64,000 bases of DNA, taken from the NCBI GenBank assembly GCA_965243205.1, contig CBDEUK010000002.1, forward strand, positions 320,001 to 384,000, given 5' to 3'. Origin of the DNA: Gammaproteobacteria bacterium. GTDB taxonomy: Bacteria; Pseudomonadota; Gammaproteobacteria; Eutrophobiales; Eutrophobiaceae. Both the position numbers and the translations under genes were made by a program. Positions 19,097 to 29,993 of the stretch are shown piece after piece; positions within the stretch are counted from its first letter, which is position 1; each line of letters starts with the position of its first letter. A model generated the notes under the pieces. The model was not told the origin of the DNA, ran no database searches, and saw only the letters and a list, made by a program, of their open reading frames with translations.

Positions 19097-19124
19097 TTAT
19101 CGCATAATGTATATTATGTTAAAT
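19097..19124 (+). other. dif: dif site (XerC/XerD), now attL of the prophage
   Basis: TTATCGCATAA-TGTATA-TTATGTTAAAT; 24/28 identical to E. coli dif GGTGCGCATAATGTATATTATGTTAAAT. Confidence 0.92.
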
Positions 19125-19235
19125 TAATTATGTCATTGATTTTTATGTACTACTTATGGGTAATTGTAAAAACAACCCCTTTTCCGTCTAATTGTTTAGT
19201 ACGCCTGCGATAATTACAAAAAGAAGGAATTACTA

Positions 19236-19604
19236 ATGACCAGCATTATTGAGGACGCGGCATGGTACGCAGACGACAAATATTTTTATTGGGATAGCAA
19301 TTATAACCTTGAAACCATCCCCGAATTGGTGGCAAAACACCCCAAAACGATAAAACGATGGCATGAAAACAACGCTTGGCCTCTCTGGGCGAAGCGATTG
19401 ATTGCATCATACAGTGGTTATTATTTGCACCCCGGCTGGCATGGATGGCGGCTCAATCCAAGAGATTTCAAACTGTACCCGCCCGGGTTACGACATGGGT
19501 TCACAGCGCCAGAAATTGAAGGACTGGATTTTATCCGGCAAAACTTGGGGAATATTCGGCACTCTGAAATGAAGCCGAAGCAATACGAATTATTGTTTAC
19601 TTAG
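19236..19604 (+). CDS. DUF3653-like phage HTH protein
   Basis: HTH-like KTIKRW then W-x-G-W...L-x-P-P-G pattern as in filamentous-phage DUF3653 proteins; AAGGA RBS; follows the repressor in the circular form. Confidence 0.6.
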   Translation: MTSIIEDAAWYADDKYFYWDSNYNLETIPELVAKHPKTIKRWHENNAWPLWAKRLIASYSGYYLHPGWHGWRLNPRDFKLYPPGLRHGFTAPEIEGLDFIRQNLGNIRHSEMKPKQYELLFT

Positions 19605-20001
19605 GTTTAGTATTTACAACGTCGTTCTTTTTTATATGTAGATAAACTCTGTCACCAAACAAAAAGAAAAACGCGCTAGAGCCTATATTTAAAGTACTTT
19701 GAGCGTGTGGTGAGTTCATAACAACAAGTACAAACGCCATCAGTAAAATTAAAAATGTGGCGATGTAACGAGACGACTCGCGTAAATCAGTGACCCATTG
19801 CGATGCCTTGCCCGACGGTTTGTCGATGTCGGCTAAGGCTTTTAATCGCTCGGTTTCCGCATTCATTAACTGAATCGTTTCTTCAACGTTTTGCGGACGA
19901 CCACCGGCTGAGCCTGTGACCTTAGCAACTACACCTCTTATAGTATCGACAACAGCAGGAACTAAACTTGGTAAAACAGTTGTTGCTAATATTTCAATCA
20001 T
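19597..20001 (-). CDS. Putative holin (3TM-holin-like)
   Basis: Last gene of late operon; W..LR.SSR followed by two hydrophobic segments ending FFLFGDR and a basic tail. Confidence 0.55.
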   Translation of the reverse strand: MIEILATTVLPSLVPAVVDTIRGVVAKVTGSAGGRPQNVEETIQLMNAETERLKALADIDKPSGKASQWVTDLRESSRYIATFLILLMAFVLVVMNSPHAQSTLNIGSSAFFFLFGDRVYLHIKKNDVVNTKPK

Positions 20002-20194
20002 GATTTGAGCCTGTATTTATAGGGTTTTCTTGCGTTAGTTCACTTTCTAAATTAATCACACGTTTGGTTAACTTACTGACTTTATCTGCTACGTCATTGA
20101 TGCGTTGTTCATTGCGATAGATAAGATAAATAATCAACGCCGATGAAAAGTCACCACCAGCCGATAACAGTTTCAATAATTCATCTAAGGGCAT
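19994..20194 (-). CDS. Small TM plus coiled-coil protein (lysis accessory?)
   Basis: 66 aa, overlaps both neighbours, one hydrophobic segment then heptad pattern. Confidence 0.55.
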   Translation of the reverse strand: MPLDELLKLLSAGGDFSSALIIYLIYRNEQRINDVADKVSKLTKRVINLESELTQENPINTGSNHD

Positions 20195-20535
20195 GTTGTA
20201 CAGCGAACCGAACCATCAAGACCGAACAACGGGTCATCAGGACAACGACAGCCTCGGTCAATCACAATTTCAAAGCTACCCGGCGCACCGCCGCCATCTT
20301 TACCGCCAACACTCGCAATGCCAAAATCTTTAAAAAAATCATCGAATACACTGCCACTAGTAAAACCATCACCATCAGCCCCGACGAACGTACTACTTGC
20401 ATCACTCGGTGAAACACTGCCGAAAGATCCCAAATTTAGCCCAGATAAGGACTTCCCGGACTTCCACCACCACAACAGGCCGCCAATCACGATGCCTGAC
20501 AAGATCATTTTTTTCGTATTAGAATCGTTTTTCAT
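20185..20535 (-). CDS. Virion membrane protein with Cys-rich C-terminus
   Basis: N-terminal TM (ILSGIVIGGLLWWW), Gly/Ser-rich middle, CRC...CTTC; ATGA overlap with upstream gene. Confidence 0.6.
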   Translation of the reverse strand: MKNDSNTKKMILSGIVIGGLLWWWKSGKSLSGLNLGSFGSVSPSDASSTFVGADGDGFTSGSVFDDFFKDFGIASVGGKDGGGAPGSFEIVIDRGCRCPDDPLFGLDGSVRCTTCP

Positions 20536-21251
20536 GCCCTACCCGCTACTTGGTCTATAAAACCCCAATCAATGGCCGCATAAAACTGACCGCCGCCCGG
20601 TTGATTACGTCCCATCCAGTTCGCAACACGACCGCCCTTTCGTGGCCGTCCATCAATGTGCATACCGGGGCGCGGTTTCCAGTCGGGATACACACCGATA
20701 CCACCAATCGCCGACACTTCAACGGCTGCGTTGTACGCTTCGCGCAAACTACTCTCAGGAAATATATCAATCGCATCGGACAAACGACCGACCGCATAAT
20801 GACGTGAATTTTTCGAACCGGTTAATCGAAACAATGCACCGGGCGCGGGTGAAATTCGAATCGGTTTACCTAAGCGATGCCGCATATCATCCAACGCATG
20901 AATGATGCGCGGGTCAATGTGTTTTAGATTTTCATTACCGCCAAATTCAGCCGGCGTGAAATATCGAATCTTGTCCCAATCAACGGATTGAGTTTGGTCA
21001 ACGATGGGGAATTCATTTACAGTTTCCAATTCAGCCTCCCGATTGCCTGCGGTATTCGATACAGTGGGAAAAGTAAAAACGGTGTCACTGTCGAACGAAC
21101 CAAGTTTGAAAAAATCCAAAAAATCATCGTCCAGAAATCCACCATCAAGAAGACCATCCGCGAGTGGATTAGATTTGCCTTGAGCCTGTCGAGCATAAAG
21201 AACACCTCCGACAATCGTCGCGGCCGCTAAAAGTTTACCCGCCCGACTCAT
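20532..21251 (-). CDS. Membrane-anchored peptidase M15 (peptidoglycan hydrolase), at the PM2 P5 position
   Basis: N-terminal TM; YFTPAEF, SRH...DAIDI, MHIDGR Zn-peptidase motifs. Confidence 0.8.
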   Translation of the reverse strand: MSRAGKLLAAATIVGGVLYARQAQGKSNPLADGLLDGGFLDDDFLDFFKLGSFDSDTVFTFPTVSNTAGNREAELETVNEFPIVDQTQSVDWDKIRYFTPAEFGGNENLKHIDPRIIHALDDMRHRLGKPIRISPAPGALFRLTGSKNSRHYAVGRLSDAIDIFPESSLREAYNAAVEVSAIGGIGVYPDWKPRPGMHIDGRPRKGGRVANWMGRNQPGGGQFYAAIDWGFIDQVAGRA

Positions 21252-21600
21252 TGTTCAATGATGCTATGTAATCGTTTAACTGCTGATGAAATTGAGCCTC
21301 GGTAATTTCTTTGTTACCGAGTTTTTTATTCAAGTCATCCGATTTAATCCGTATCTTTTCAGCATTCGCCAGTCGCAACGTTTCTTGTTCTTGCTTCTGT
21401 TGAGCTGTCATAAAAATTAAATCATCGTCGGTCACGTTATCGTTTAAGAACGTGCAACAGGTTTTAAAATCGGCTAATACATCGTTCATTGCCTGCTCAA
21501 AATTCTTTCCACCTGTCGCTAGCATTTGCAGATAAACCAAACCTTGAAGCTTGCGCGCACGCGACGATGTATTACTCGGATTAGTTCCAAACTGTTTCAT
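21235..21600 (-). CDS. Hypothetical phage protein
   Basis: Likely start MKQFGTN at 21600 after GAGG; overlaps downstream peptidase start. Confidence 0.55.
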   Translation of the reverse strand: MKQFGTNPSNTSSRARKLQGLVYLQMLATGGKNFEQAMNDVLADFKTCCTFLNDNVTDDDLIFMTAQQKQEQETLRLANAEKIRIKSDDLNKKLGNKEITEAQFHQQLNDYIASLNNESGG

Positions 21601-21602
21601 GA

Positions 21603-22277
21603 TTAAAGTACCTCGTAGATGAGTGAATAACGTCCCCAACTGGTATTCGTTTGGTTGTAATAAATCCCGTTTCCTGCAGGAACAATGAACATCGGCTCCT
21701 TGTGGTCATGACGACCGGCCGAGACCATCAACAACGTGCAGGCATTACCATCATCGAATCCCGCTGGCGTGGTGGCTTTGTACATAATTCGCATTAATGG
21801 CGAAATGGAGACCATATCGATAGAGTAAACTTTTATACCGTTGACATTCGTAGCTGGCGGCACGATGGTAAACATGCTGGTATTGTTGAGTGCGTTATGC
21901 GCCGAAAGGGTATTCGATAAATCAATATCGCTGCTAATTTTCAGTGGAAAATCTTCGTTCTGTTCCATTAACACCGCATCATCTCTAATGCGTGACTCGC
22001 CATTCACAGACCAAAACTCAATGGTTAATGTTTTACCTGGCTGCGCTTCATTGGCTAGCCATAGCTTGGTGGTCGGCCACTTCTCAAACCGACGACCGTT
22101 AAAAATATCAACCGGCACATTTTCAGTTGAATTAAATCGTAACGTTGCCTTAGCACCGGGCGATGATGAACGGATTCGTAACTCGTTACACTGAACGTTT
22201 AATTCAAACAGTGAACGCGCAACCGATAAATCAATATCGATTTTACGAATCGGTAATAAGTCGAATTTATTACTCAT
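21603..22277 (-). CDS. Penton/spike-like protein, paralog 2
   Basis: Beta-rich; clearly homologous to 22277-22999; PM2 P1 position. Confidence 0.6.
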   Translation of the reverse strand: MSNKFDLLPIRKIDIDLSVARSLFELNVQCNELRIRSSSPGAKATLRFNSTENVPVDIFNGRRFEKWPTTKLWLANEAQPGKTLTIEFWSVNGESRIRDDAVLMEQNEDFPLKISSDIDLSNTLSAHNALNNTSMFTIVPPATNVNGIKVYSIDMVSISPLMRIMYKATTPAGFDDGNACTLLMVSAGRHDHKEPMFIVPAGNGIYYNQTNTSWGRYSLIYEVL

Positions 22278-22999
22278 TAGAGCACCTCATATTCCAACGC
22301 CACCCACGAGTTGGCATTGGCATTTTGTTGAACGTAAATACCCAAACCGGCAGGAATAATAATCACCCTTTCTAAATTTCCTGTTGTTCCACCCACGACC
22401 ATCATCAACGTGTGCGCCGCTGTATCGGTGTACGAACTCGGAGCAGAACTTTTCGCCATAAATCGCATCGATGCACTACTGGCCGCACTGGCTAACAAGA
22501 CCTTAATGCCATTCACATTTGTTGCTGGTGGCACGATGGTTTGTAAGTTGTTGTTAACAAGTTCGAAAAAATATTGACTCACCATCGTCGGCGGTGTTGG
22601 TGGGTCAGTAATACCTTGAATTTGCGGGTCTACGGGAAACTCTATATTTACAGGGTCAGCGTCATCGATTTTCACTAAGCCAACAATCTGAGCGACCAAC
22701 GCATCGTCTTCGATTTGCGTATCACCGACAGCCGTCCAGTATTCAATCGTTAATTCCGCGCCTGCTTGAGCATCGTTATCAATAAAAATTTTTCTAGTGG
22801 GCCAATTGGTAAACCGTCGCCCGTTAAAAATATCAATCGGTTTGTTTTGTGTTTGATTGAATCGAATTTTCGCTAAGGCATTCGCGCTGTTGGACGACAC
22901 ACGTATTTGATTACAGCTAAAAGTCAGCTCTTCTAAATTACGAGCGACTGATAAATCGAGTGATATTTTACGAACGGGCAACCCGTCAAAGTTGCTCAT
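22277..22999 (-). CDS. Penton/spike-like protein, paralog 1
   Basis: Beta-rich N domain, Pro-rich linker (DPPTPPT), beta-rich C domain; PM2 P1 position. Confidence 0.6.
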   Translation of the reverse strand: MSNFDGLPVRKISLDLSVARNLEELTFSCNQIRVSSNSANALAKIRFNQTQNKPIDIFNGRRFTNWPTRKIFIDNDAQAGAELTIEYWTAVGDTQIEDDALVAQIVGLVKIDDADPVNIEFPVDPQIQGITDPPTPPTMVSQYFFELVNNNLQTIVPPATNVNGIKVLLASAASSASMRFMAKSSAPSSYTDTAAHTLMMVVGGTTGNLERVIIIPAGLGIYVQQNANANSWVALEYEVL

Positions 23000-23454
23000 T
23001 TCTTACGGCCCTTTTTACGGTTAAACCAAAAGTACGCCATCGCACCGAGACCCAGTTGAACTTCGGGCTTTGATAAATTATCAGCGAGTTTTCGGAACGT
23101 CTCTTGACCTGACTCAACGATTTCACCGACCGTTGTTGTGAGTGCAGCAGTAGCCCCACTCGTTCGAGCAAAGTCCTGTGATACCTGTTCAAGTGCATCG
23201 CCGGCCGGCTCTAGAATTTGTTGTATATCCTCGCCCTGTAACCCTTGATTGGTAATTTCAAACGTTAAATCCGAATCGGGTGAGCCTGAGACTTTAATCG
23301 CGGTCGCGCTCGGTTTGTCGGCAACGACTGACCCTTCCGAGGTGTCATTAATCGTTCGTGTGTTCGTGGTGCTGTTACTGGACGACGAGGATTTCGAACC
23401 GCCACCGCGATACCCTGCAAACGGTAATAGTTTATTTTGAATTCGAGTAATCAT
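22996..23454 (-). CDS. PM2 P10-like virion membrane protein
   Basis: GGGSKSSSSSNSTTNT near N-terminus, C-terminal TM plus basic tail; position before spike. Confidence 0.6.
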   Translation of the reverse strand: MITRIQNKLLPFAGYRGGGSKSSSSSNSTTNTRTINDTSEGSVVADKPSATAIKVSGSPDSDLTFEITNQGLQGEDIQQILEPAGDALEQVSQDFARTSGATAALTTTVGEIVESGQETFRKLADNLSKPEVQLGLGAMAYFWFNRKKGRKK

Positions 23455-23891
23455 CGTTTATCTATCTGTTTAAGCATCACCAATTCACCCGGGACAAATC
23501 CATTTTCCAAATAGGTTTTAATCAGGCCCGGTCGCTTCACATGAGCGCGAACTCTGCTACACCCTTTTATCTGCCCGATTTCTTCAAGCAACGGTAAAAA
23601 CTCCATCATGAAACGCAACTCGCCAAAGTTACCGCCTACGGCGACAACAACACATTCCAGTCCGTCATATCTCAGTACGCAGCAACCGAAATCCGTCTCG
23701 CCATCCGTTGCGTGGTATAACTCACAATGACCGTTCATGACATCTCGCGCGCAATCTTCAATGCCGTAAATTTCATCCCACTCAACCGGCTCACACCATT
23801 GTCGAGCGGTGTAATTCCATTGGGTTTTTACGAGCTTGAGCGCCTTTTTTTCAGTAGTGTTTTCGCTATCATGTACCCGCCTATCAGCCAT
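23451..23891 (-). CDS. GNAT-like phage protein
   Basis: VLRYDGLECVVVAVGG...GCSRVRAHVKRPGL...GF pattern typical of degenerate GNAT folds. Confidence 0.55.
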   Translation of the reverse strand: MADRRVHDSENTTEKKALKLVKTQWNYTARQWCEPVEWDEIYGIEDCARDVMNGHCELYHATDGETDFGCCVLRYDGLECVVVAVGGNFGELRFMMEFLPLLEEIGQIKGCSRVRAHVKRPGLIKTYLENGFVPGELVMLKQIDKR

Positions 23892-24094
23892 AGTGCCTGC
23901 TCCGTAAATCGTTCTTTAAATGGCTCTCTTGTAGCCCCAATCGTCACATTGACCGAGGACGTATTCCCTTCAGATAACGCGGTCGATGGCGCAGCATCAC
24001 CGCCCAAAATACCTTCGAATGGACTTTTTCCATCGCCAACAAACGGCACGCCCGAGCCACCTGACACCCCGGACAACGCACTAAAAAAACCCAT
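23828..24094 (-). CDS. PM2 P8-like virion membrane protein
   Basis: Gly/Ser-rich, C-terminal TM and KKRR tail; syntenic with P8. Confidence 0.6.
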   Translation of the reverse strand: MGFFSALSGVSGGSGVPFVGDGKSPFEGILGGDAAPSTALSEGNTSSVNVTIGATREPFKERFTEQALWLIGGYMIAKTLLKKRRSSS

Positions 24095-24252
24095 TAATCA
24101 AATACCTCGTTCACCAACATGCCGGCCGCAAAACCGACAGCGGCTAATAAATACGGCTGGTCAGTAACGGCGGCTTTGGCTTTTTCAACCGTTCCGCGTG
24201 ACTGAAAACCGGTGTAAAGACTGGCTGCGCCGACAATTAGTAACAGCGGCAT
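24094..24252 (-). CDS. 52-aa membrane protein at the PM2 P4 position (not in ORF track)
   Basis: MPLLLIVGAASLYTGFQSRGTVEKAKAAVTDQPYLLAAVGFAAGMLVNEVFD; TGATG and TAATG couplings at both ends. Confidence 0.7.
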   Translation of the reverse strand: MPLLLIVGAASLYTGFQSRGTVEKAKAAVTDQPYLLAAVGFAAGMLVNEVFD

Positions 24253-24530
24253 CAATCGTCATCCATCACCATCAAAAACAAGAACGCGACCGCTCCATAG
24301 AGCAATGCATCGTTGTTTGAATTGGTGGTTTGTTGTGGGGCTGACTGAGTGACAAAAACCGTTTCCGGCCCCGGTGCGTGCAACGTGTCAAACGGTTGCG
24401 GCGCGCCGAGTTTTTCACGGATTTTAAACCCTAAGCCCTCGGTTACTGCTGGCTTGATACCTTCCAGTACATCACCAAACCAGCCCGAGACTCCCGGGCC
24501 AGTTGGTACGAATGAATCGAACGCGTTCAT
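24252..24530 (-). CDS. PM2 P3-like virion membrane protein
   Basis: Directly after MCP, GAGG RBS, C-terminal TM (LLYGAVAFLFLMV). Confidence 0.65.
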   Translation of the reverse strand: MNAFDSFVPTGPGVSGWFGDVLEGIKPAVTEGLGFKIREKLGAPQPFDTLHAPGPETVFVTQSAPQQTTNSNNDALLYGAVAFLFLMVMDDD

Positions 24531-24566
24531 AACATTACCTCGCTAATTAACGTATTTTGGTAATGA

Positions 24567-25544
24567 TTAAATACGGTCTGAAGAACCGCCGATAATCTCT
24601 TGTACGATAATCTCCGCTTGGTGATTCGCGCCGCCGTTCACATCCATGAACAGGTCGTATGCTGCGACCTCGGATAACTCGTGACCATGACCCGGCATCG
24701 AGCGCGGTGCTAAATCGATGAAGTACACACCCGTCCGAGGCGTTGCGATTTCATGGTTCATTGAATAACGAGCCTGATTCATTGCGCCCGTTTCCTTGAA
24801 TCGGACTTCTGAATCGGTCTCAACAATCAAGCTGTTGATGATGTCGTTCGCACGAACACCGTTGTCACGAGCAATGACCATTGCCGACATCACCATGCGA
24901 TTTTCGCCTGACAATAAGTCGACTTTTAATCGGTCATTGGTGTTGTTGATGTTGACTAAAATGGTACGTTCACGATGCAACGCGTAGTTGTTTTGTAAAC
25001 TGTTATTACGCACTAAGTCATGACTCATGACTTCAATGGTCGGCTCGACAGTCCAACTTAAAACAGTTGTTCCCGCTGGCGTTACTAAGTCGCTCGCATC
25101 GCCCCAATCCACGTTTAGAGTAAAACTGGTTACTCCGCCCTCGCGTGTCGCATCAAGCAATGTTGCATCTTGAGCGGCTCCGGCTTCAGGCATCCACAAC
25201 GGGATAGAGAAATACGCCTCAAATGGACGGTCACCTGTCGCAGTTCCCGGCGCGACGTTGTACGGCACAACACGGCCGCGACGAATATTTAATTCTTTGA
25301 GCGCCTTACCCGATAACGTTTTGACTGGTACGTTACCGTTGACCATGATTTCTAAATTTTTAATCAAGCTGAACGGCGCGTCTTCCAATACTGCGGTTGC
25401 CGCCGCCGTACCGATATTTAACGTACCTGATAATCGACAGTGAATTTCACGATACACGCGACCTTCATGCAGATTGATAAAACCCTGTGCATTTTGAGCG
25501 TAATTCAAAATGTCTTGAGAACGACGATAAGCAGTAATACCCAT
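24567..25544 (-). CDS. Major capsid protein, predicted double jelly-roll
   Basis: 325 aa of alternating beta strands in two halves (IKNLEIMVNG...; INSLIVETD...VYFIDL); between ATPase/P7-like and P3-like genes; GAGGG RBS. Confidence 0.78.
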   Translation of the reverse strand: MGITAYRRSQDILNYAQNAQGFINLHEGRVYREIHCRLSGTLNIGTAAATAVLEDAPFSLIKNLEIMVNGNVPVKTLSGKALKELNIRRGRVVPYNVAPGTATGDRPFEAYFSIPLWMPEAGAAQDATLLDATREGGVTSFTLNVDWGDASDLVTPAGTTVLSWTVEPTIEVMSHDLVRNNSLQNNYALHRERTILVNINNTNDRLKVDLLSGENRMVMSAMVIARDNGVRANDIINSLIVETDSEVRFKETGAMNQARYSMNHEIATPRTGVYFIDLAPRSMPGHGHELSEVAAYDLFMDVNGGANHQAEIIVQEIIGGSSDRI

Positions 25545-25569
25545 GATAAACCCTCTAAAAGTTAATAAT

Positions 25570-25593
25570 AAAAAACCGGGTAGGAACCCGGTT
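25570..25593 (-). terminator. Terminator-like hairpin between P7-like gene and MCP
   Basis: Minus strand AACCGGGT-tcct-ACCCGGTT followed by TTTT and ATTATT. Confidence 0.55.
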
Positions 25594-25599
25594 CATTCA

Positions 25600-25719
25600 C
25601 TAGCCGTTAACAATGCGGCGCAGTGGTGGCACTCGATTGATGATTGCTAATGTGATGGCAGTCATTACAACGCCGTTAACGATTTGATTAGCAGTCGGCA
25701 ATTTCACACTTGTAGCCAT
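25600..25719 (-). CDS. PM2 P7-like 39-aa membrane protein (not in ORF track)
   Basis: MATSVKLPTANQIVNGVVMTAITLAIINRVPPLRRIVNG; GGGAG RBS; pattern hydrophobic-N(R/K)V..LR as in PM2 P7; between ATPase and MCP. Confidence 0.75.
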   Translation of the reverse strand: MATSVKLPTANQIVNGVVMTAITLAIINRVPPLRRIVNG

Positions 25720-25815
25720 GAGTCGGTCTCCCGTTCGTTAAAAAAAATTACACGGCAATCATGGTCGTTACATAACCTCATTCAAGTGCTATTACGTATA
25801 CGTAAAAAGAAATTT

Positions 25816-26454
25816 TTACGGGCCTTTTAATTCGGCTTTTTGCATGCCATCGCCAAAGAAAAAGTACTGGTACGGCTGTAGTTCAACCAACTCTTTTGCC
25901 GTAACACCGGGCAAGGTTTTCGCGATGCGATTGGCATCCTCTTCGTACGTAAGACCGAATGACGTTATGTGCGATGCGTTCGATAAAAAGGTTTTATCAA
26001 CACCCGTCGGACGCTGTGATGTCCCCATGATAATCAAGCCATGTTGACGGCCAGTTGATACTAACTTTTCCCATTCAGGAATGGCGTAACCCGGCTCACT
26101 TACCATCTGAATTTCTTCAACGACACACATCAATGGGCCGCCATGTTTAGCGACTTCGTACGCGGTATCGCAAAAGACACCGAATTGCATTAAACGATGT
26201 TTTTGGCTGGCTTGGTTCGGGCGAAAGGCTTTACTGAACGGCTTGTCATACACGCTCGTTAAGTGACTGACCAATTTATCGCAACTGTCCGTCGAATCTA
26301 AATCGAACTCATGTTTGAAATCCCACACCATCAACCGAGTCGGCTTTAGTTCAGCGATGTCGTTTAATAGTTTGGTGGTTTTACCCATGCCGGTGCGACC
26401 GAAGTACGCCCGGACATTGGCTTTATGGATGTTATTATTTACGTTTACTTGCAT
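25816..26454 (-). CDS. FtsK/HerA-type (PM2 P9/A32-like) genome packaging ATPase
   Basis: Walker A GRTGMGKT, WD, Walker B VVEE, GRQHG, SQRP; likely start MQVNVNNN at 26454 after GGAG. Confidence 0.88.
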   Translation of the reverse strand: MQVNVNNNIHKANVRAYFGRTGMGKTTKLLNDIAELKPTRLMVWDFKHEFDLDSTDSCDKLVSHLTSVYDKPFSKAFRPNQASQKHRLMQFGVFCDTAYEVAKHGGPLMCVVEEIQMVSEPGYAIPEWEKLVSTGRQHGLIIMGTSQRPTGVDKTFLSNASHITSFGLTYEEDANRIAKTLPGVTAKELVELQPYQYFFFGDGMQKAELKGP

Positions 26455-27091
26455 GTGTACTTTTCTCCGCTTCCGCCCATGATGGTGCGTTAATCTCCGC
26501 CTCTTTGAATGCGGCTGGTTTTTCAGATTGTTGACTGGAATTGCTCTCGACTGGCTGACCATCTTCAGGCCATAGCACGGTTACTGTTGCTAGTAACAGT
26601 GGCCCAAAAAATAACGCGGCCGACATTTCATCGGATACTTTGCTGAGTGATTGAGCACTGTTACCGAATAAGGCTTTGAAATACGGCTTTTCCATGATGG
26701 GCGCTAATTTACTCGCACCCTCTTGGATGATGTCCGGCGTATAGATAGCCGCCATTTGTGGGTACTGCATCGACAGCGCAGCCACGACCGTTTCTATCAA
26801 TACCTTTGCGGCTTTACGGTTTTCTTCGAGTGCATCCTCTGGCGTGATGACCGTACCTTCAAGACCCGGTACACCACCGCCCTCTTGATTCGATTCAACC
26901 TGTGCCGCTCTCGCTTTTAAGTTTGCGAACGGGTCAGCGGTTCCACCATGTCCCGGTTCGGTCGAGCTCTGACTCGTCGTTTGGTTCTGGCTCTGGTTCT
27001 GGGTCTGACTCTGGCTCTGTTGGCTCGACCGGGTCGAGGTTTTCTTCTTCGATTTCTTCTTCGTGACTTTCGTCTGGGTCTGGTTTTCCAT
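26435..27091 (-). CDS. Phage membrane protein upstream of ATPase
   Basis: 218 aa with hydrophobic C-terminal segment (AALFFGPLLLATVTVLW); long 5' overlap with upstream gene, start uncertain. Confidence 0.6.
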   Translation of the reverse strand: MENQTQTKVTKKKSKKKTSTRSSQQSQSQTQNQSQNQTTSQSSTEPGHGGTADPFANLKARAAQVESNQEGGGVPGLEGTVITPEDALEENRKAAKVLIETVVAALSMQYPQMAAIYTPDIIQEGASKLAPIMEKPYFKALFGNSAQSLSKVSDEMSAALFFGPLLLATVTVLWPEDGQPVESNSSQQSEKPAAFKEAEINAPSWAEAEKSTHASKRK

Positions 27092-27275
27092 CGTCTATAG
27101 GTCTCATACGTTGTCGGATTAATTGGTCGGATTTATTGGAACGGGCGAAGTGCTGAGAGCCACACGCGCCGCATGTATACGTGGCCCACTTACGTTTTGA
27201 CGATTGCTTTACGATGCATTCCGCGCCACAGTTAGGGCAATCGATTCGCCCGATGACATTCGTCGGCTCAGTCAT
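26934..27275 (-). CDS. Zinc-ribbon transcription factor, PM2 P14-like
   Basis: CPNC...CGAC, acidic Pro-rich tail; GAGG RBS; follows rep and P13-position gene. Confidence 0.7.
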   Translation of the reverse strand: MTEPTNVIGRIDCPNCGAECIVKQSSKRKWATYTCGACGSQHFARSNKSDQLIRQRMRPIDDGKPDPDESHEEEIEEENLDPVEPTEPESDPEPEPEPNDESELDRTGTWWNR

Positions 27276-27426
27276 TTTTAAGCACCTCTCTGAGTAGTAT
27301 TACCAGCTCCAACATCAACGGAATCGCACGTTGTTGAGCAAACAACATGCGGGAACCTACCGATTCATTGGCTTTGGTTAATTCGGCTTGAATAGCCTGT
27401 AATTGTTGGTCGATATCAGGGTTCAA
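27268..27426 (-). CDS. 52-aa protein at the PM2 P13 position (not in ORF track)
   Basis: GGAGG RBS, TTG start overlapping rep stop; [52 protein letters not shown]. Confidence 0.65.
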
Positions 27427-29027
27427 AGTGTTACCTCCGGCGGGGGTTGTGATAATTCGTGAAAATTTACGGGGGTAGCGGGTAATTCCCGCGTACAGTT
27501 ATTGACAGGACTCCAAGGGGCGTTTTGTTTTGAATCTCGTACAACACGCCACTCATGGAGTCTGGTTAAGATCACGTCAATGTTATCGGTCACGCCGTAA
27601 ACGATGTCACCTATCGGCTCACCATAACGACCCGGTTCGTCCGACCATGATTTACATACGTGAATTTTCAGATTTTTACGTTGTGTAACAGGGCCACCTT
27701 GTGCACGTACGTAATCAGCCCAGTTACCCACATCAGCGGCATAGCGTACGCGTTCAATCGATTCGGAATCGACTTCGTTACGTAAACGACGAAGTTCACG
27801 CCACACCCCAACAGGTGGGCCGCCGATTTGCTGGAACTGTCGTATACCCCACGCACTCGCCCACGCTCGGACGAGTGCAGCGGCTTTTATGTCAGCATCT
27901 TCGAGGCCTTCCCCGTCGATGTTCTTTGAAATGTACTTTGCAATGTAGGCGGTCGCCGACCCTTTGGACGGGTCGATTTCCTCAATTTTTAATCGGTGCT
28001 CTTTGGCCCCGGGTTCGTTTGGGGTGTCCTTAATGGCATGATGGAATAGAACGTCTTGAACGTCGGCACGTTGTTCATTAGGCATGAATAGCAACATATG
28101 CCAGTGGGGGCAGCCATCGTGATGCGGCTCAGCGATTCTAAATCCGAAAACTGGTAAGCCTTGACGATGTAACTTTGCTCGGACTCGCGACCACACACCG
28201 CACAGATATTGCTGTGAGTCTCGTGGTGTTGCGCCGTTGTAGTTCGGGTTTTCATTTCCTGTTTTCGATAGCCTTGCATGAAACCGTGACGGACACGTTA
28301 ACGTATAAAAATCGGCAACGTATCCCATGTCATTCGCTATTGTTTCAAACCCAGATAATCGACACATCAATTCGTTACGTCTTAGTGCCGGGTTCGATAC
28401 TGATAGCTCCTGCAACTCTGACAACGTGTATTCCTGACCGCTGTCATTGATTGCTATCATAGACTCTAAAAACGCTTTATTCCTTTGTATCGCTAATTGA
28501 ACTCGCTCAACTGTGCCATGACTCACATACTTGCTAGCCTTACAATGCACCATGCCGTTATCAATCGCGGCCGACTCTTGCCGTCTGGTTAAATCTTTTC
28601 GTAACTTACGTGTCCACCAATCAATGCATCGAAGCCGCGCCAATCTCGCATCCATTGGCAGGGTATCGCGAGGCGGTTGAATACCTGAACGCAACGCCAC
28701 CTGTTCACAGCTGCTAATATCATTACCGTACAACTTCACGCGCCCCACTCTATCGACAGCGAACGCACGCACGTCATCGTCCTTTGAATCAAGCCCTAAA
28801 CGGTCGCTTGCATAATTCGTTTCAATGTCTAAGAGGTAATGATTCGCTTTTTGTGACGAGACACTTTCATGTATTTTTTTATACGTTCCAGCGATAACAT
28901 CGCGTAAATCATCGGCTAATTTTGTGAAGATACGTCGACGAAATAACTTGTTGTCACGACCGACCCTATCATCTGGAAAACCCGCAAATATTAGCGGGTC
29001 ATCGATTAACAGCTCGGCTCTAGCCAT
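27423..29027 (-). CDS. Rolling-circle replication initiator, phage P2 GpA family (HUH endonuclease)
   Basis: [59 protein letters not shown]. Confidence 0.92.
27495..27521 (-). other. P2-type replication origin (nick site) inside rep 3' end
   Basis: Minus strand GCCCCTTGGAGTCCTGTCAATAACTGT closely matches the P2 ori GCGCCTCG^GAGTCCTGTCAATAACTGT. Confidence 0.75.
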
Positions 29028-29176
29028 ACGACTTCATCGCCTTCAACTTCGGTAATTTCCAATTCATCGGCATTCACATCACAAAGAAAATGCTCAACGA
29101 TTAACGGTGAATCGAGCCGCTCAGGACACAAGTCAATGACTCGGTCGAGGGCCGACCTAAACTCACGCAACGTCAT
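29006..29176 (-). CDS. 56-aa acidic hypothetical early protein (not in ORF track)
   Basis: [56 protein letters not shown]; overlaps both neighbours. Confidence 0.5.
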
Positions 29177-29357
29177 CCATCACCTCGAACACCTCGTCCA
29201 CTCGCTCAACTGTCATGCGATGGTAGTTACCTTGGATACCGAATAAAGTGGGTTGAAATACGACTATGGAAATGGGTTTGATATGGTCTCGGATACCGAC
29301 AATCATCGCCGTCATTAACGGCTCTGTTCGGCCCTTCAATCGTGTGCCTACGTGCAT
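29163..29357 (-). CDS. Hypothetical first early protein
   Basis: 64 aa, GAGGA RBS, first gene of the leftward operon. Confidence 0.55.
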   Translation of the reverse strand: MHVGTRLKGRTEPLMTAMIVGIRDHIKPISIVVFQPTLFGIQGNYHRMTVERVDEVFEVMDDVA

Positions 29358-29511
29358 CGAAATTTCCTCATATTGATTAATTTTTTATCGGAACTCGAAA
29401 CAAGGAGGAGGCCCGAGAGCTAATCGGGCCAAAAATTTCGATGTTCCAGCAATACCAGATAAGCGGAGATTTTGGGGAATCAGCACAACATCTAGTGGTT
29501 GCTGGAAAAAC

Positions 29512-29540
29512 AGAATAGCTAAGTCACGCTTAACTAGCAA
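29512..29540 (-). promoter_or_regulatory. Predicted sigma70 promoter of the phage early (rep) operon
   Basis: Minus strand TTGCTA, 17 bp, TATTCT; overlapped by two palindromic operator-like boxes. Confidence 0.55.
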
Positions 29541-29615
29541 GTCTGACTTGAACTTCAATTGCTTACAAACATCAATTACACTTGACTATAACAACAATTA
29601 AGGGGAATCAGCACA

Positions 29616-29993
29616 ATGAACACAATTGAAACATTGGACGCCATAAGTCGTTGTAATAACAACTGTACTGACTACAGAATTGCAAAAATGATGGGTGTTT
29701 CCACCTCTAGGGTCTCTAACTGGCGAAATGGCAAGAATTCTATGGATGATGAAGCCCGAATCGCCGCCGCAAAGTTACTAAACCAAGACCCAGAAACACA
29801 ACTAGTTTATGGACAGATGGAACGGACAAAATGTCCAGAGGTGAAGTCCGCATGGATGAATTTAATCGAACGTTCAAAGGTCGCCGGTTTCATTCTAGCC
29901 CTATTTTTAACCTTTGGAATGACATTCACTAATTTTGAAGGTGCAACGGTTGCAGCAGCAGAAAGCGCGAACGGTGTATATTATGTTAAATAA
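29616..29993 (+). CDS. HTH repressor, DUF3693-like, with TM segment; 3' end overlaps attR
   Basis: TDYRIAKMMGVSTSRVSNWRNGK HTH; hydrophobic VAGFILALFLTFGMTF; divergent from early operon; last codons GVYYVK are the att core. Confidence 0.8.
   Translation: MNTIETLDAISRCNNNCTDYRIAKMMGVSTSRVSNWRNGKNSMDDEARIAAAKLLNQDPETQLVYGQMERTKCPEVKSAWMNLIERSKVAGFILALFLTFGMTFTNFEGATVAAAESANGVYYVK
29964..29991 (+). other. attR: dif-like site with degenerate XerC arm
   Basis: AGCGCGAACGG-TGTATA-TTATGTTAAAT. Confidence 0.85.

Follow-up and report, generated by a model that had tools for sequence, protein, structure and literature searches.

The 64,000-nucleotide stretch of DNA analysed here (the window; positions 320,001 to 384,000 of contig CBDEUK010000002.1, assembly GCA_965243205.1, from a gammaproteobacterium of the family Eutrophobiaceae) carries at 19125–29991 (window coordinates throughout) what is probably an intact-looking, PM2-like (Vinavirales) tailless double-jelly-roll (DJR) prophage, located at the chromosomal dif site and apparently using the XerC and XerD recombinases of its host. 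An earlier sequence-only reading had proposed a complete, integrase-less DJR prophage at this position; the repeat at the two junctions, the lack of a recombinase match and the structural model of the capsid protein all agree with that proposal. At 10,867 bp, the element lies within the 9–12 kb range of Vinavirales genomes. Its ends are drawn by the following two sites.

19097–19124, + strand: full 28-bp dif, comprising the XerC arm TTATCGCATAA (19097–19107), the centre TGTATA (19108–19113) and the XerD arm TTATGTTAAAT (19114–19124).
29964–29991, + strand: right junction, with a degenerate arm on the XerC side and then 17 bp (29975–29991) that duplicate the dif centre and XerD arm exactly.

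The 17-mer TGTATATTATGTTAAAT is present in two copies in the window, as an exact direct repeat (19108–19124 and 29975–29991) with a spacing of 10,867 bp; its chance expectation in the window is 0.09 matches, and at least two matches were seen in 1 of 100 shuffles. The right 28-mer matches the full dif at 20 of 28 bases; within the XerC arm, the agreement drops to 3 of 11. Judged by its sequence, 19097–19124 is both the left junction and the retained functional dif. Across the 2.79-Mb genome, the 23-mer core of dif has a single occurrence, at C2:339.1 kb, close to the terminus as marked by GC skew (the cumulative GC skew reaches its maximum at ~C2:370 kb), and is found with 0–1 mismatch in five of the five relatives searched; in a genome of the same genus, dif adjoins the orthologue of the GGDEF-EAL gene on the left flank. 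The GC content is 0.464 within 19125–29991 and 0.357 in the remainder of the window, and in 500-bp steps it runs at 0.41–0.53 from ~19.1 to 30.0 kb, compared with 0.27–0.35 on both sides. Measurement thus reproduces both the dif core plus XerD arm repeat and the raised GC by which the 10,867-bp element had originally been delimited. The coding density is ~95%, with 23 gene-sized frames, all of them open.

Insertion at the chromosomal dif, with dif on one flank and a dif-like site on the other, is the configuration of an IMEX (integrative mobile element that exploits Xer), as is the combination of an element without its own recombinase and a host that encodes both XerC and XerD. In Pfam searches, the 24 open reading frames (ORFs) of the element gave no match to tyrosine, serine or DDE recombinase families. 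A six-frame search likewise found no Phage_integrase match in the element; all five matches in the genome lie elsewhere, two of them being the host XerD (C2:171998–172894; TIGR02225, 404 bits) and XerC (C2:1389581–1390480; TIGR02224, 365 bits). These features suggest that integration depends on Xer. The attachment site would be the 17-bp repeat that combines the dif centre with the XerD arm, with host XerC/XerD recombining attP with dif; the identical 6-bp centre would allow full strand exchange. The product would be an intact dif on the left, keeping chromosome dimer resolution working, and, at the right end, a hybrid site whose XerC arm is degenerate. A 122-aa protein encoded next to the left junction might activate XerD without FtsK, as XafT does for TLC-phi. 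This XafT-like role, proposed by analogy, is the weakest step of the mechanism; a predicted complex of the host XerD with the 122-aa protein scored 0.00 in two runs, for which controls were not folded.

Other elements appear to use dif in related bacteria. In the same-genus genome (locus L014, G001:C10, 1–3476), dif and the GGDEF-EAL orthologue are separated by 1.4 kb of small ORFs, among them one for an 81-aa helix-turn-helix (HTH)-like protein that aligns loosely with P15-like proteins, and a HipB/HipA pair lies on the opposite side of dif; together they might be what is left of a different element at this site. A second relative (G007:C1, locus L017, 28–5003) carries a Phage_F capsid gene (610 bits), a Chlamy_scaf scaffold gene and a Rep gene, and another contig of that genome likewise terminates in dif. 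The Phage_F-type locus and the dif-ended contigs indicate that dif is also used by microviruses in the bacterial family of the host.

The identification of the element as a DJR virus comes from its capsid gene.

24567–25544, − strand: 325-aa predicted DJR major capsid protein (MCP), from an AlphaFold2 model with Foldseek and from profile matches.

Taken alone, the 325-aa protein has no match in Pfam or PHROGs, and no tblastn match in 50,697 phage records; two more distant members of the family (P0012 and P0035) also have no tblastn match in that phage collection. Among 5.8 billion proteins it has 10 close homologues, at 44–61% identity, two of which are encoded on contigs of 11.5 kb (11,492 bp) and 10.5 kb (10,503 bp). 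An MCP profile search returned 582 clusters at E<=1e-3, and the family alignment comprises 101 of the 150 members listed. The Pfam P2_C threshold was passed by two of the four MCP relatives scanned; within the 101 aligned members, P2_C matches 48 and P2_N 21. Profiles built from the 24 closest and from all 101 sequences matched, among solved proteins, a single kind, the coat protein of STIV (E-values of 5e-8 and 9e-17, respectively, over ~270 residues); in hhalign, weaker matches were obtained to PM2 P2 (3e-4) and to the NO16 MCP (2.6e-5).

AlphaFold2, run on the 101-sequence alignment, returned an all-beta, two-domain model (mean pLDDT 95.1, pTM 0.91). The top Foldseek match in the PDB is the STIV MCP (2bbd; E=6e-20, TM-scores 0.78/0.78), followed by PRD1 P3 (5e-19), PM2 P2 (6e-17; TM-scores 0.68/0.80), and then PBCV-1 and other DJR capsid proteins. 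On the strength of this model and its Foldseek ranking we regard the 325-aa protein as a DJR MCP, as had been supposed from the letters. The STIV coat protein B345 (Turriviridae; PDB 2bbd/3j31) is both the best structural match and the sole PDB profile match of the family, although STIV is an archaeal virus with another genome and ATPase, and its coat protein is 14% identical to the MCP described here.

The MCP was not found in the 60 relatives searched or in 400 other genomes sampled from the class, and no relatives by gene context were found in IMG/VR or, in two scans, among JGI metagenome contigs. Genome contigs of GTDB yielded one related locus (L002; 30% MCP identity), an 11.7-kb contig of an Omnitrophota metagenome-assembled genome (MAG), with counterparts of the ATPase and MCP of the element and of the N-terminal part of its pair of paralogues; no GpA Rep is present in L002.

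The remaining genes of the element are listed below in order of position.

19236–19604, + strand: 122-aa P15/XafT-like protein (divergent HTH plus DUF3653-like), candidate XerD activator; gene start 112 bp from dif.
19597–20001, − strand: 134-aa membrane protein, lysis/holin-like candidate by position; phrog_28107 at 1.8e-16, transmembrane-like segment at residues 80–94.
19994–20535, − strand: small ORFs of 66 aa and of 116 aa, the latter with a hydrophobic N-terminal segment; from ORF calls.
20532–21251, − strand: 239-aa protein with a hydrophobic N-terminal segment, putatively a membrane-anchored muralytic peptidase.
21235–21639, − strand: 134-aa protein, no significant family.
21603–22999, − strand: two tandem paralogues (224 and 240 aa; 44% identical), vertex/spike candidates.
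22996–23891, − strand: 152-aa and 146-aa proteins in the slot of P10 and GNAT in Vinavirales, from position relative to PMC9502842 only.
23828–24530, − strand: three small proteins (88, 53 and 92 aa), two with hydrophobic segments, at the positions of PM2 P8, P4 and P3.
25600–25719, − strand: 39-aa hydrophobic protein at the position of PM2 P7, from hydrophobicity and position.
25816–26562, − strand: 248-aa FtsK/HerA-type packaging ATPase, Walker A GRTGMGKT; phrog_2666 at 7e-22, common to PM2 P9.
26435–27091, − strand: 218-aa protein that contains a hydrophobic segment and occupies the PM2 ORF h position.
26934–27275, − strand: 113-aa zinc-ribbon protein, P14-like transcription factor; phrog_20333, common to PM2 P14; BLASTP 3e-4.
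27268–27426, − strand: 52-aa ORF, position of PM2 P13 (position only).
27423–29027, − strand: 534-aa rolling-circle initiator (Rep) of the GpA/P12/RstA family; Pfam Phage_GPA (PF05840), 297 bits against a cut-off of 31.4.
29006–29357, − strand: pair of small ORFs upstream of rep, where PM2 has d and e (position only).
29616–29993, + strand: 125-aa HTH regulator (P16/RstR-like), whose final codons pass through the right dif repeat.

This gene order had been likened to that of the corticovirus PM2 (Corticoviridae; ~10-kb genome), and the annotated PM2 record has the same layout. In both, a P16-type regulator, small ORFs, a GpA-family Rep, the P13 slot, the zinc-finger protein P14 and the ORF h slot are followed by the packaging ATPase, the tiny P7-like gene, the MCP, small membrane proteins, the spike slot, lysis genes and the P15-type gene. 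The PM2 genome also contains an exact match to the XerD arm between gp c (P16-type) and gp a (P15-type), which is the order of the circularised element. The strongest similarity is that of Rep to P12, the GpA-family nickase of PM2 (37% identity, E=2e-89), with which the motifs HWHMLLF (HUH) and YIAKYISKN (Tyr) align. The ATPase is ~26% identical to PM2 P9 (26.6%) and to the NO16 ATPase (tblastn 3e-9 and 2e-8, respectively), and gave no PDB match to a viral packaging ATPase. Its gene lies just upstream of that for the MCP, with the tiny P7-like gene in between, a trait of Vinavirales. The 125-aa regulator matches phrog_638 (5e-19) and phrog_4441 (1.2e-17), both common to PM2 gp c and NO16 gp6 (BLASTP 6e-6), and the 122-aa protein matches phrog_1668 (4e-6), common to NO16 gp7. 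Pfam zinc-ribbon matches of the 113-aa protein are below cut-off. The PM2 MCP has 269 aa compared with 325 aa here, and the two are not detectably similar by BLAST; nor was any similarity found between the element and PM2 P1 (for the paralogues, E=0.54), ORF h (the 218-aa protein) or P5.

Of the functions first assigned from the letters, those of Rep, the zinc ribbon, the ATPase, the 39-aa hydrophobic protein, the DJR capsid and the small hydrophobic proteins held, whereas spikes, muralytic enzyme and holin are suggested by position and weak matches. For the 239-aa protein, Peptidase_M15_3 (E=0.031) and the endolysin family phrog_894 (3.9e-3) are both below cut-off, and sequence searches of the PDB returned nothing for this protein or for the 240-aa paralogue, the model of which has a pLDDT of 53. 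The N-termini of the paralogues resemble two L002 proteins encoded downstream of the L002 MCP. As a tandem duplication, the pair has conserved N- and C-terminal parts and a variable middle, and L002 too has two related genes. The 152-aa and 146-aa proteins have no Pfam or PHROG match.

A few details of the coding layout are recorded here. Over 158 nt (26934–27091), the 218-aa frame and the zinc-ribbon gene use the same DNA in different frames; both are of low complexity there (an acidic tail and a Ser/Gln/Lys-rich head), which makes it uncertain where the 218-aa gene truly starts. Between the 39-aa and capsid genes, a 9-bp GC-rich hairpin is followed by a T run (25573–25594, − strand), an odd place for a terminator within a virion operon. 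A scan for promoters and terminators found fewer promoter-like sites than in shuffles, and PADLOC matched none of 18 proteins. In the circular form (29616–29993 joined to 19125–19213), the frame of the HTH regulator would extend from 125 aa to 154 aa, with 66% of the 29 added residues hydrophobic, and would end 23 nt before the P15-like gene. Since the regulator frame crosses the junction, integration changes the C-terminus of the regulator.

From homology to PM2, a life cycle can be outlined. The circular form would have its attachment site between the P16-type regulator gene and the P15/XafT-like gene, as in PM2, and would replicate by rolling circle through the GpA/P12-family Rep; the FtsK/HerA ATPase would package the genome into a DJR capsid with a lining of small membrane proteins, and release would follow through the lysis cassette. 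Activity itself, like the internal membrane and the roles in spike and lysis, is proposed by analogy. Four sequencing runs, from one sample of one study, contain the element, with no RNA run among them; in the assembled contigs from four of the ten listed runs, one 20.5-kb contig spans 17500–30874 and represents the integrated form, and nothing aligned from the two runs that bear the same label.

Several observations weigh against a functional PM2-like prophage mobilised by Xer, or against parts of that assignment. About 30 kb separate dif from the GC-skew maximum. An empty site that also carries the right flank was not found in the relatives, and the right boundary is thus unconfirmed by that route. 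The assembled contigs, all from one sample, contained the integrated form throughout, with no circular or excised form and no joints. The attP here has a degenerate XerC arm, and that of TLC-phi a degenerate XerD arm; with opposite arms degenerate, the order of strand exchange is not a given. The XafT-like assignment of the 122-aa protein was made from pairwise BLASTP matches to NO16 gp7 (5e-5) and PM2 gp a (8e-4) and one common PHROG. Pfam DUF3653 (PF12375) does not match the protein, the genome-wide search remaining empty even at E<=10 (NO16 gp7 scores 57 bits, and PM2 gp a 21.6 against a cut-off of 22.4), and a word-indexed search found no homologue of it. Finally, position is all that the sequences offer for the spike, ORF h, GNAT and lysis roles.

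With these points in view, three other explanations were considered. The same element could be a domesticated or inactive remnant, fixed at dif, that neither excises nor forms particles: the contigs examined show the integrated form only, the hybrid right site has a poor XerC arm (3/11) and the XafT-like protein is very divergent. However, all 23 gene-sized frames are open at a coding density of 95%, the HUH and Tyr motifs of Rep and the Walker A motif of the ATPase are intact, the element was not found in 60 relatives, and its GC content is still 11 points above that of the host, which suggests a recent arrival; inactivity is therefore a reading that we consider unlikely. Still less credit is due to an unrecognised recombinase of the element's own among the unannotated small ORFs, with the dif repeat a mere target preference. 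About half of the ORFs lack a family assignment, and some Vibrio tailless prophages at dif do encode integrases, according to the part of PMC11630473 drawn on here; yet neither the 24 ORFs nor the six-frame translation gave a recombinase match, and what is duplicated corresponds exactly to the Xer crossover region together with the XerD arm, which leaves this explanation with hardly any weight.

The third concerns origin: the sequence-only reading had traced the element to three viral lineages, with a PM2-like virion module, a P2 GpA replicon and inovirus-type DUF3693/DUF3653 regulators. In the phage collection, Rep matches 380 records; the best are several genera of P2-like tailed phages (peduoviruses; 41–44% identity), slightly above PM2 (37.5%), with pre-CTX RstA at 39% and Vibrio tailless prophages at 36.5%, and the part of PMC12715192 drawn on here argues that the P16/P15/attP module passed between CTX-I inoviruses and DJR phages in ancient times. 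P2-type phages proper, though, are at 36%, so that Rep is no closer to P2 than to PM2 or RstA. A maximum-likelihood tree of 14 Reps is star-like: 3 of 11 inner branches are supported, none of them with the element Rep, and the corticoviral Reps are not monophyletic. As the GpA family is common to corticoviruses, peduoviruses and CTX-type inoviruses, no donor of Rep can be named. The DUF3693 and DUF3653 labels fell below Pfam cut-offs for the regulators of the element. Moreover, all three modules are present in PM2 in the same order, PM2 itself having a GpA-family Rep, a P16-type HTH regulator and a DUF3653-type protein with a XerD arm between the two, and GC is even along the element (0.41–0.53 per 500 bp). 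A recent chimera is thus improbable, and the three-lineage description is not supported.

A PM2-like prophage at dif, the reading that we prefer, has precedents, which are cited here as described in the portions of the papers drawn on. Thirteen PM2-like prophages were described in 11 aquatic proteobacteria, with a XII-type Rep in 6 of 11 and linearised between genes XV and XVI (Krupovic & Bamford 2007, PMC1950889). NO16-like Vibrio prophages with dif-like sites followed, together with the remark of a presumptive dif in PM2 (Kalatzis 2023, PMC9966536), and then 140 dif-type DJR prophages in Vibrio, with a module of P16/RstR, P15/XafT and an attP of 28 bp or of one arm and 17 bp (Ma & Zhang 2025, PMC12715192). 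XafT, an HTH plus DUF3653 protein, activates XerD, and DUF3653 proteins adjoin dif across gamma- and beta-proteobacteria (Midonet 2019, PMC6744903). A 12-gene Vinavirales core in the present order, with replication genes often replaced, has been defined, and families were proposed for the beta- and gammaproteobacterial prophage clades D and E (Yutin 2022, PMC9502842); a PM2 group and an STIV group with bacterial members had been described before (Yutin 2018, PMC5894146).

The element compares with these systems as follows. PM2 is known as a lytic phage. From the genus Corticovirus (PM2, Cr39582, GXT1010) the element is set apart by an MCP unmatched by tblastn, with Rep (37%) and the ATPase (26.6%) the only matches to PM2. 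NO16 ('Asemoviridae') and the Vibrio dif-type DJR prophages are likewise integrase-less and located at dif (PMC9966536; PMC12715192), and share the lysogeny module of P16/RstR-like regulator, P15/XafT-like protein and dif-like attP, for which 17 bp with one arm is a possible form; the NO16 Rep, however, is unrelated (E=0.046), its MCP is not detectable by BLAST, the matches are limited to the ATPase, the regulator and a tiny ORF, and NO16 hosts are Vibrio, which the present host does not resemble. The element thus falls outside 'Asemoviridae'. TLC-phi and the XafT IMEXs resemble it in lying at dif without a recombinase and with a small HTH/DUF3653-like gene beside the junction (PMC6744903), but TLC-phi is a satellite of filamentous phages with an attP degenerate in the XerD arm (PMC6744903), and its XafT is a DUF3653 protein, whereas the 122-aa protein misses the Pfam model. 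Vinavirales clades D and E ('Neaeraviridae' and 'Amphitheaviridae') consist, as described in PMC9502842, of prophages of Beta- and Gammaproteobacteria that have the Vinavirales core set and no cultured member.

The genome of the host (2.79 Mb, 36.7% GC) is in two contigs whose skew curves fit one chromosome. The smaller, C1 (460 kb), has a monotone GC skew and a length that closes the gap left by the unequal replichores of C2; C1 and C2 thus look like one circular chromosome of 2.79 Mb. The host XerD has no homologue above 74% identity, the nearest coming from metagenomes, and all three organism-named matches are gammaproteobacterial MAGs. From its genome sequence, the host is a poorly sampled gammaproteobacterium that is not Vibrio-like, in keeping with the first impression of a non-Vibrio-looking host.

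The architecture and the lysogeny module are therefore already described, in PM2-like prophages (2007) and in Vibrio dif-type DJR prophages (2025) (PMC1950889; PMC12715192, in the parts drawn on here); what appears new, as judged from sequence comparison, is a strongly divergent, STIV-like capsid protein and a non-Vibrio host. As regards the capsid protein an undescribed lineage is plausible, one not separable from the gammaproteobacterial clades of Yutin 2022, which are known here by description. A bolder proposal is that the element is the first genome-anchored member of a family-level Vinavirales lineage, with a PM2-type chassis, a long STIV-like capsid protein, an under-sampled host and an attP within the 3′ end of a repressor-like gene (whose product would have 154 aa from the circular form and 125 aa from the prophage); we judge it doubtful. 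If attP does lie inside the repressor-like gene, the integration state of the genome could be read from the form that the regulator takes.

The capsid protein was missed by BLAST, PHROGs and Pfam, and standard prophage finders would probably miss the element too. In the accounts drawn on here (PMC9966536; PMC11630473; PMC12715192), the integrase-less tailless prophages at dif described so far are from Vibrionaceae. The same P16/attP/P15 module is found here with a PM2 chassis in a distant, low-GC gammaproteobacterium, which supports a spread of Xer-exploiting tailless phages wider than Vibrio, and the 10.9-kb element offers a compact model for XafT-like activation with an attP degenerate in the XerC arm rather than in the XerD arm.

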